From Escherichia coli (GTDB lineage: Bacteria > Pseudomonadota > Gammaproteobacteria > Enterobacterales > Enterobacteriaceae): DNA of 64,000 nucleotides. The notes under the pieces are model-generated. The model had not been told where the DNA came from. It searched no databases and saw nothing but the letters and a program-made list of their open reading frames with translations. Both the position numbers and the translations under genes were made by a program. The stretch is taken from assembly GCF_030013205.1 (NCBI RefSeq), contig NZ_CP122648.1. One strand, 5' to 3'. Below are positions 3,297-5,678 of this stretch, in pieces (position 1 is the stretch's first letter; each line of letters begins with the position of its first letter).

Positions 3297-5108
3297 TCAA
3301 CGAATACTGATGCCGGAAGCGGCTTTTTTGGTCACAATCACCGTACAGTCGGTGATATTGCCTGCCCCCTGATTGCCTTTCTGGAAAATCTTAAACTCCA
3401 GAGTGACGCTTCCCCTGCCACTCGGCATATCAATAACTGCACTGTAACTACCGGGAATGGCCCCTTTAGTTTCTCTGGATGCGATTAATACGCCGTTTTT
3501 GCGAACTTCAAAACCATAACCCGTGTATCTTGTACCTCCCGGGTTATTACCACTTCCCGGATCGCTATACGCTATTCCGTTAAAGATAATGGGCGGAATA
3601 ATGATTTGACGGTCAAAGTTATGATCATCGCTGATGGTGACTGTAACCGTCCCGTTTGGTGTTTCCGTATTACCCCACGTACCAGCCTGTTTCGGGAATG
3701 ATTTGGATACAGCTTTAACGAAGTCACCTCTGACCTGAGTCGCCTCCAGCATGCCCTTAATCGTACAGTTTTCATTTACCGTGACATTGTTGAGCGTCCC
3801 GGCGTTCGCATTCACACTGCCACTGATATCCGCATTTTTAGCGGTCAGCTTTCCGTCCGGTGTCAGGGAAAATGCCGGCGGATTTCCACCGCTGGTAATG
3901 GTGGGAGCCGTCAGGCGTTTCAGGAACACGTCATTCATGAATATCTGATCACCCTGACCAACAAACATCGGTTTTGTGTTGCCATTTGCAGGATTAATCA
4001 TCGCAATCCTGTCCGCCGCCAGCAGCACCTGACTCTGCATGCCGTCAGGGGTGTTCTCAATACCGGCACCGATACCCGCAATATAAAGGCGTCCGTCCTG
4101 CATCTGCTGCAGCTTCACTGCCCACATGCTGTTCAGGTTATTATTTGTATCAACCTGAACCTTCTGTATCTGCTGGATCGCTGCACTCTGGTCTTCCAGT
4201 TTCTTATTGACGGTCTGTGTTATTTCATTGCTGACATCCGTTATGGACGTCCTGATTTCAGTCAGGTCAGGCGCAAGCTGACCGTTATCAATCTGCGTCC
4301 ACAGCTCCTGAGCCAGATGGGTTTTCCCTATCTCGCCTTTGAAAAAATCCAGATAGCCTGATGCATCATCACTCGGCTGACCGACAGCCTCCACGAATGC
4401 CGATTTGCCAACGGTGTTCACACTGCGAACGTAAAAATAATAATCATGGCCCGGTTTGATATTGATACTGGCGGCTATCCAGTACAGCGCCGTGCCAAGA
4501 TAGCGTGCTGTGGTTTCAACCTGCCTGATATCCGCAATCCGCTTTTCCGAGAACCAGAACTCAAACTGTACCGTCGGATCATAAACCGCAAGATGCGGCG
4601 TGGCGGTTATCTGAAAATAGCCCGGCGTCAGCTCAATCCGCGACGGCGCTGCCGGTGCGGCAATCCGGAACGATACCGACGCCGGATCTCCCTGCTGCCC
4701 CCACGCATTTACCGCCCGGACTGTCAGCCTGTAGTTCCCCAGCGCCAGTTGCGTGAAGCGGTATGTGGTTTCCGTCGTCCGGGCCGTGCTGACCAGCCGC
4801 TCACTGCCGTCGTCCGCTGTTACGGTCAGACGGAGCAGGAAGCTCACGCCCTTCACCACCTTCGGCGTGTCCCAGCGCGCCAGCACCTGATATTCCCCGC
4901 TGTCTGCAGTGACTTCTGCGGTCAGGTGCTGCACCGCTGGCGGCGTGACACCATTCACCGTGCCGCTCTGGTCACCGTCAAAGTGCGCCCCGTTATCCAC
5001 GATGGCTTCTTTCTCCGGTACATGCTGCACGGCGGTGATGGCATACGTGCCGTCATCGTTCTCACGGATACTCACGCACCCGCATATACTGAGCAACGGC
5101 ATCAGCAA
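3297..5108 (-). pseudogene. J: Host-specificity protein J, C-terminal fragment (about 600 of about 1100 aa), no proper start codon
   Basis: Fibronectin-like repeats and the C-terminal receptor-binding region typical of lambdoid J; the ORF begins at a non-ATG codon directly after the Nu1-like gene. Confidence 0.75.
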
Positions 5109-5183
5109 CCCGCATTCGTCTCGGTGCGCGAAGGATATAACCTGAATCGGTTCGTGCTGCCTTTGCGGTTTCCTGATTCAGCA

Positions 5184-5678
5184 TTACTCCTCCTGCTGTA
5201 ATTCCTCCTCATCATCCGCACCTGCTTCAGTCACCCGCAGGGCTATCTGATCGCGAAGATCATCAATAATGGACTGAACACGGCTCACAGCGGCAGGCTG
5301 CAGACCGCAGTCACGTTCAAGAATATCCGGTAATGTCTCCAGCACCTGCACGACCGCTTTTGCCCAGATGGCAAACTCCCGTCTGACATCACTGGCCGGA
5401 ATGAGTTGTGCCGTTTCCTGTTCGAACTTAAGACGCTCACGTTCAGACTGATACCAGGCTTTGCGCTCATGCGCGTCCATTTCGCCTTCTGCAACCGGCG
5501 GTGGTAATGCCAGAAATGCCGACACAATATCAACCACCCGATAAAGCTTGAGGTTGCTTTCATGCCCCCCTGCAACGGGTAGATTTTGCAGCCTTGCCGC
5601 AGCAGTCTGGCGATGTACACCTGACAATGCCGCCAGTTGACTGATATTCAGCGTCAGATTTTTTAACTCTCGATCCAT
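5184..5678 (-). CDS. Terminase small subunit, Nu1-like (NohA/NohB-like)
   Basis: 164 aa, N-terminal HTH-like segment (LNISQLAALSGVHRQTAAARL), central coiled region and acidic C-terminus; architecture as in Nu1. Confidence 0.5.
   Translation of the reverse strand: MDRELKNLTLNISQLAALSGVHRQTAAARLQNLPVAGGHESNLKLYRVVDIVSAFLALPPPVAEGEMDAHERKAWYQSERERLKFEQETAQLIPASDVRREFAIWAKAVVQVLETLPDILERDCGLQPAAVSRVQSIIDDLRDQIALRVTEAGADDEEELQQEE

Follow-up and report, generated by a model that had tools for sequence, protein, structure and literature searches.

A deletion scar joining terL to J in a defective lambdoid prophage of Escherichia coli, and a recurrent deletion end-point in the large-terminase gene

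The cryptic prophages DLP12 and Qin of Escherichia coli K-12 have kept a small-terminase gene that is now joined to tail or tail-fibre genes, in DLP12 in the order nohD-aaaD-tfaD, where aaaD is a fragment of the terminase A gene, and in Qin with nohA abutting stfQ. The small-terminase gene may or may not be accompanied by a short 5' fragment of the large-terminase gene; both prophages have lost the genes for the head and the tail shaft, and the lysis genes upstream remain. The same outline was found in a defective lambdoid prophage that lies partly within a stretch of 64,000 nucleotides of E. coli DNA (assembly GCF_030013205.1, contig NZ_CP122648.1; hereafter the window), where the small-terminase gene terS and the first codons of the large-terminase gene terL are followed by the C-terminal part of J, the tail-tip gene. 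An initial annotation, made from the sequence alone, had described this junction as a deletion scar of the same kind as those of DLP12 and Qin. The likeness holds for the general outline but not for the breakpoints: the break is at codon 103 of gpA in DLP12, in frame to Tfa, in the last codons of nohA in Qin, and at codon 36 of terL in the window, and the partner is J in the window but fibre genes in the two K-12 prophages. The small terminases also differ, being of the lambda Nu1 type in DLP12 and Qin and of the DUF1441 family in the window. Other described relatives are mEp460, cdtI, and the prophage of strain ETEC1738, which are lambdoid phages with a Gifsy-2-like fused protease-capsid head. 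The terS gene and the 5' end of terL in mEp460 are 99% identical to those of the window and the gene order is the same, cdtI has the same cos end, GGGCGGGAGCGT, and ETEC1738 has the same attachment site. Compared to these three, the window prophage has lost 16 kb from the late region, 3.8 kb from the early region, and part of its side fibre gene. We are rather confident of the reading as a whole, namely that the junction is a deletion scar (terL108::J573) whose terL end falls on a recurrent end-point, with Chi and RecBCD as the candidate agents that would fix this end-point.

Mapping of the end-points and a search for microhomology, the two checks that had been proposed for the junction, placed it at window positions 5076-5078, where three bases, GCA on the plus strand and TGC on the coding strand, are common to terL nucleotides 107-109 and to J (alignment to both parents; BLAST boundaries 5076 and 5078). 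On the terL side, nucleotides 1-108 of a GpA-type large-terminase gene, i.e., codons 1-36, are retained at 5077-5184 on the minus strand, as seen from alignment with the intact terL of ETEC1738, W13-16, and mEp460. This remnant is 100% identical to the intact copies and matches in tblastn at 36 of 36 residues, the full TerL proteins carry PF05876, and the terL ATG at 5184 overlaps the terS stop codon (TAATG). The Prokaryotic Genome Annotation Pipeline treats these 108 nucleotides as a pseudogene and labels them a truncated 'hypothetical protein'. On the other side, the C-terminal remnant of J (3297-5078, minus strand) consists of 593 codons and the stop codon, contains the domains Ig_J, Ig_J_second, Phage_Tail_Tip, and Ig_GpJ_C, and is 100% identical to the J of W13-16, which has 3498 nucleotides and 1165 codons. 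The J remnant is out of frame with the terL remnant, and a by-product of the junction is a chimeric open reading frame (ORF) of 40 codons at 5062-5184 on the minus strand, in which TerL residues 1-36 are followed by REYP and a stop codon. The initial annotation was right that J has lost its ATG, but the loss is of codons 1-572 and not of about 500. It had also read 5108-5184 as a 76-bp spacer through which terS was joined directly to J; this segment is part of the first 108 nucleotides of terL, so that a remnant of 36 codons stands between the two genes, and position 5108, which had been taken as the start of J, is a mechanical TTG inside the terL remnant, the homology to J beginning at 5078. 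The shared bases at the junction are few, there is no long homology and no recombinase site, and no insertion sequence (IS) or other insert was seen there in the annotation of the window. These alignments identify the junction as the scar of a deletion by microhomology-mediated illegitimate recombination that joined terL nucleotide 108 to J codon 573.

That genes were lost from this place and did not move is evident from ETEC1738, in which the same prophage is present at the same prfC site and 16.03 kb that are absent in the window lie between the two end-points. This interval holds terL, the connector, the portal, the protease-capsid fusion, the decoration protein, the tail genes, the tape measure, M, L, K, I, and full-length J, i.e., every one of the genes whose absence had led to the proposal of a deletion. 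The two flanks of the scar match ETEC1738 at 98.5% and 95.4% identity and the sibling strain W13-16 at 100%. A rearrangement, in which the head and tail genes would have moved elsewhere in the element, had been named as the finding that would overturn the deletion. The missing genes were not found elsewhere, neither in the annotation of the prophage and the rest of the window nor in tblastn searches of the 64 kb with 13 late proteins of the intact relative, which matched only TerL residues 1-36 (5184-5077) and J residues from about 573 to 1158; a rearrangement is therefore next to impossible. There was also no sign that the terL-J arrangement is ancestral and that the late genes of ETEC1738 are an insertion. 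An assembly artefact was rejected, as several of the junctions described below sit in complete genomes from different laboratories. In kind the scar is genuine and ordinary, and it documents one more defective prophage; what adds some interest to it is that its terL end coincides with a strongly recurrent end-point of which we found no description in the literature.

The exact terL-J junction was present in five pig strains among 5,426 complete genomes and also in a fox isolate. The same element, inserted at the same site and with flanking sequence 100% identical to that of the window, is present in strains W13-16, ETEC6333, ETEC1701, and ETEC6334. The deletion of the W13-16 type is smaller: it runs from terL nucleotide 823 into K, of which the 3' part is left, and spares I and J. 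The window prophage has a second deletion scar at 13564-13570, found by comparison with the intact relative, where the end of ymfL is joined to the middle of rusA through a 7-nucleotide microhomology, ATAACCG, with the loss of 3.83 kb that contained the genes for Rha, a replication protein, PerC, a methylase, and a LexA-like protein and the 5' part of rusA. A third scar was noticed at about 2366-2562, where 138 nucleotides from the N-terminal end of the side tail-fibre gene (2425-2562) adjoin a 'head spike fiber' ORF (1077-2366). Both the terL-J and the ymfL-rusA scars fully enclose the matching smaller deletions of W13-16. This nesting, together with the shared prophage, site, and flanks in W13-16, ETEC6333, ETEC1701, and ETEC6334, would fit an origin in two steps, in which a smaller deletion like that of W13-16 came first and a further deletion of 3.3 kb then erased its junction. 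W13-16 itself is not the ancestor, since it has a private Lom::fibre deletion that differs from and overlaps the fibre scar of the window and removes sequence which the window keeps; W13-16 is thus a cousin. Moreover, chance alone will often place a small deletion inside a large one in the same region, and the junction itself does not discriminate because the second event would have erased the first. We regard a two-step origin as possible, but lean against it. Whatever the order of events, relatives this close in which the same prophage is intact, slightly deleted, or largely deleted offer a dated, stepwise picture of prophage decay.

The fox isolate (NZ_LR882493.1, positions 5990-6200) has the identical terL108::J573 junction in an otherwise different prophage, with different lysis and regulatory genes, 4 single-nucleotide polymorphisms (SNPs) in the 85 nucleotides of J next to the junction, and a second deletion that runs after about 93 nucleotides of J into lom with a 12-nucleotide overlap. 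Lambdoid prophages exchange segments freely, and so the window could have gained its junction by homologous recombination from another defective prophage that carried terL108::J573. Such an import is unlikely, as the J remnant and the terS side are both 100% identical to W13-16, in which J is intact across the breakpoint, and both crossovers would have had to leave no foreign SNPs.

The terL end of the scar is not a random position. In unrelated E. coli strains, at least 24 different deletions have their left end in the block ATGCGGGTG|CCC, at about terL nucleotides 100-111. Their partners lie in terL itself, in the portal, capsid, tail, J, Lom, and fibre genes, and in host-proximal DNA, and all of these events are simple deletions in one orientation. 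At the DNA level, this position is joined to J in the five pig strains and the fox isolate, to Lom at about codon 100 in the Qin-like prophage of dog strain D2, to the K/I boundary in EC19, to the interior of terL itself in L010, to the int-proximal region by dusA in L016, to fibre genes in L017, L019, and L021, to the portal gene in L020, and to the tail-gene region by gene L in L022. A search with the 40-residue chimeric peptide gave 56 short ORFs, about 28 of which consist of TerL residues 1-36 followed by unrelated tails; for 16 of these, the tail could be placed in the late region, at positions that range from terL to the fibre genes and are always on the same strand. The remaining short ORFs are accounted for by local frameshifts in a G5 run. 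Within codons 20-60 the only other breaks were at codon 26 (2 cases) and at codons 54-58 (5 cases). Each junction type tested was confined to one clone, with 1-5 of the 5,426 genomes, which indicates independent and fairly recent events; an ancient single junction that was widely inherited is rejected on the same ground. Pattern scans added little: among viral sequences there were one junction (that of L010) and two SNP alleles, among metagenomes only one SNP allele, and in genomes the scan for more junctions found none. A literature search for a described deletion hot spot in terL also found none.

The microhomology at the other junctions at terL nucleotide 108 is 1-7 nucleotides long and lies within GCGGGTG|CCC. 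A single fixed phosphodiester after G108 was rejected as the point of exchange, since four junctions have the sequence GGGTA, whose A derives from the partner, which places the crossover inside the microhomology block. Cutting at cos by terminase was likewise rejected as the cause of the fixed end, the cosN-type sequence (5853-5864) being 787 nucleotides upstream and unlike the hot spot; the mEp460 record simply begins at the terS start codon. Neither does a hairpin or cruciform explain the break, because DNA folds of the two strands were no better than those of shuffled sequence (z +1.2 and +0.2). Alleles of the cdtI type match mEp460 only from terL nucleotide 100, but this mosaic boundary reflects a diverged N-terminus for TerS specificity and gives no sharp joint.

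A plausible but unproven explanation of the terL end-point is resection by RecBCD to a Chi site followed by microhomology joining. The Chi sequence GCTGGTGG occurs on the coding strand of terL at nucleotides 144-151 (Chi144) and 612-619 (Chi612), and the break block is about 35-42 nucleotides upstream of the co-oriented Chi144. At both scars, the undeleted parent has a Chi of the right orientation shortly past the retained end, 35 nucleotides away in terL and 12 nucleotides away at the second scar, where the upstream end is 5' of a co-oriented Chi in the intact relative; both of these Chi are on the strand that is read by RecBCD moving towards terS. The breaks at codons 54-58 are 11-23 nucleotides 3' of Chi144. 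When TerL residues 120-235 were searched, breaks were found at residues 172, 195, 204, 210 (twice), and 213, five of the six being within nine codons of Chi612. After Chi612 the next Chi of mEp460 on either strand is 22 kb further on, and its early and lysis region has 13 co-oriented Chi; in all, mEp460 has 16 Chi on the top strand and 4 on the bottom strand. In the window there are no Chi at 1-7823, at 7824-13890 there are six on the late-gene strand and two on the other, and in the chromosomal remainder beyond 21600 there are 4 and 5. A Chi skew, with many co-oriented sites in the early and right-hand part and almost none in the structural genes, has been published for this phage class (PMC12315714). 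Chi is treated in that paper as an aid to lytic growth, and in the sections consulted nothing ties the positions of Chi to the places where deletions that inactivate prophages end. The cdtI-type terL allele reads ATGCGTGTT and has no Chi, and it shows no pile-up, with 1 of about 5 breaks at the equivalent codon. In the same allele (L009), four fusion tails (P0145, P0146, P0151, and P0163) start at one position at about codon 90 (GWIVY|), at GGATGGATTGTCTAT|ACC, which is possibly a second recurrent breakpoint, in a gene without Chi.

On this explanation, a break or collapsed replication fork would arise anywhere in the Chi-free block of structural genes, and RecBCD would degrade the DNA back towards terS until it met a co-oriented Chi in terL, at nucleotides 144-151 or 612-619. 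The 3' tail spared by Chi could then anneal to a downstream site with which it shares a few bases and prime repair, whereby the intervening genes would be deleted and the left end would be pinned next to Chi. Deletion hot spots are known at arrested ends and forks, for example at Ter/Tus in E. coli plasmids, where one end is fixed, the other is variable, and the microhomology is a few base pairs. Unlike at Ter/Tus, the fixing element here would presumably be Chi acting on RecBCD, and the events are natural deletions of 1-24 kb in prophages.

Several points weigh against this account of the scar and its end-point. The main cluster is 36-42 nucleotides 5' of Chi and not at Chi, a distance which the model does not predict, and no Chi adjoins ten further deletions in these prophages, among them all three of W13-16. 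There is a minor second end-point site after the other copy of ATGCGGGT (nucleotides 70-78), and at codons 394-398 of mEp460 terL (L008, about 1698-1712) there is a cluster on CAGCGGGCGG with no Chi nearby, where three in-frame fusions, to stf, to the N-terminus of J, and to mid-J, fall within 5 codons at CAGCGGGCGGAACCGGTGCC, a GCGGGCG motif. The second-copy site and the Chi-less cluster together suggest that the motif GCGGG(T/C)G may matter in its own right. The three protein searches had different sensitivity windows, so that counts at different positions are not strictly comparable. We infer the direction of the fork, from terS to J, from the gene order of K-12, and the role of RecBCD at the end-points is putative. 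A microhomology of at least 3 bp is expected by chance at about 5% of junctions by calculation, and hence the shared TGC is by itself weak evidence.

The motif leads to a different explanation, in which the end-point has nothing to do with Chi and a sequence-specific event takes place at ATGCGGGT, which is repeated at nucleotides 70-77 and 100-107. A protein bound there might block exonucleases or forks, an enzyme might nick the DNA, or the GC-rich microhomology might simply be unusually 'sticky'. Both motif copies do serve as end-points, sequences like GCGGGTG, matching at up to 7 nucleotides, are over-represented at the partner sites, and the cluster at codons 394-398 is on GCGGGCG away from any Chi. 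In addition, both the motif and the Chi sequence are changed in the cdtI allele, and the two factors are confounded there. However, stickiness alone is insufficient for the many partners that share just 1-2 nucleotides, neither strand has significant secondary structure, and the clusters that flank Chi144 and Chi612 would be left unexplained. To our knowledge, the hot spot does not match dif, gix, a cos half-site, a relaxase nic site, or the gyrase consensus, which also counts against the motif, and we know of no convincing match to the type II sites GGYRCC and CCWWGG or to the geometry of a type I-E protospacer-adjacent motif and protospacer. A sequence-specific event of this sort is on balance rather unlikely. 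The broader proposal, that Chi positions decide where lambdoid prophages break down, with breaks in the structural block being resected to terL and sealed by microhomology, we put forward tentatively, as one that may well not hold.

If the Chi explanation does hold, prophage inactivation would be partly deterministic and predictable from a Chi map. It would then bear on the recognition and annotation of defective prophages, in which a 108-nucleotide remnant now passes for a 'hypothetical protein', on the survival of certain modules in domestication, and on whether helper phages could still package remnants that have cos and terS. There would be a repeated type of remnant, made up of the lysis genes, cos, terS, 36 codons of terL, and whatever lay downstream, and also a mechanistic reason why cryptic prophages often keep the region from lysis genes to terS and lose heads and tails. 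Few natural deletion end-points known in E. coli would recur as often as nucleotides 102-111 of terL.

The small-terminase ORF that had been called at 5184-5678 on the minus strand is real, as is the C-terminal J fragment that ends at 3297. The terS gene is intact, with 164 codons and its stop codon at 5184-5186, and its only Pfam match at E <= 0.01 was to DUF1441 (PF07278, E = 2.7e-41), the Phage_Nu1 profile giving none. The description 'Nu1-like' in the initial annotation is therefore apt as a functional analogy and not as family membership; NohA and NohD of K-12 are Nu1 homologues whose sequences are unrelated to the small terminase of the window. The identical protein, WP_000373425.1, is present in W13-16, in the fox isolate, and in D2. 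As in phages of the mEp460/cdtI type, the DUF1441 small terminase is followed by a GpA-type terL whose start overlaps the terS stop, and a lambda-like cos with a 12-nucleotide end is upstream of terS. The cohesive-end sequence given above, which is the first 12 nucleotides of the cdtI record and is similar to GGGCGGCGACCT of lambda, is retained at 5853-5864 on the minus strand, about 175 nucleotides upstream of terS, and is the putative cosN-type cleavage site. With this sequence and an intact terS kept, a helper phage of the same terminase specificity might still recognise the remnant.

The defective prophage occupies window positions 1-21548, as judged from the annotation of NZ_CP122679.1, from comparison with the yjjG-prfC region of K-12, and from the intact relative. 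NZ_CP122679.1 is from the pig isolate E. coli ETEC4069, whose sequence matches the first 12 kb of the window at 100% identity. The left end of the prophage is about 3.3 kb before window position 1, and the whole element is about 24.8 kb, whereas in ETEC1738 the same attachment ends are more than 40 kb apart. Comparison with K-12 places the insertion at the 5' end of prfC, and the late genes are on the minus strand. In rising coordinates, the genes are the tail-fibre fragments, lom, the J fragment, and terS, followed by a phosphatase moron, the lysis genes, a tRNA-Gly gene, and the AraC/DUF6731 cargo, and then Q, DUF968, KilA-N, the rusA fragment, ymfL, the cro-like and cI-like genes, yfdPQR, and int; the core genes from yjjG to fimH come after int. 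Downstream of the J remnant, lom, which codes for an Ail/Lom outer-membrane protein, is intact (2627-3226, minus strand). The tyrosine integrase gene is at 20054-21277 on the minus strand, and at 21507-21548 part of the prfC 5' end is duplicated beside the displaced prfC fragment, forming the right attachment region. The integrase and the prfC 5' segment duplicated at both ends mark an integrated phage, and the particle-essential genes that intact relatives have are absent, as expected of a cryptic lambdoid prophage; missing are the body of terL, the portal, capsid, tail tube, and tape-measure genes, M, L, K, I, and the N-terminus of J. By its gene content the remnant keeps cos, terS, the lysis genes, Q, the immunity genes, int, lom, and the cargo genes and is not able to build particles, as had been predicted.

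The cargo lies among the late modules at 6111-6686, 8254-8328, and 8746-10710. It comprises a gene for lipopolysaccharide core heptose(II)-phosphate phosphatase between the lysis genes and cos, and also the tRNA-Gly gene, a gene for an AraC-family regulator, and the DUF6731 gene. At the left end of the prophage, outside the window (L001, 5418-7317), a gene for a SLATT-domain protein is followed by a reverse-transcriptase gene beside dinI, and this pair is likely to be a defence cassette. In the chromosomal part of the window, at about 43300-44900, a BrnT/BrnA toxin-antitoxin pair lies beside a frameshifted IS1 and a truncated dienelactone hydrolase gene.

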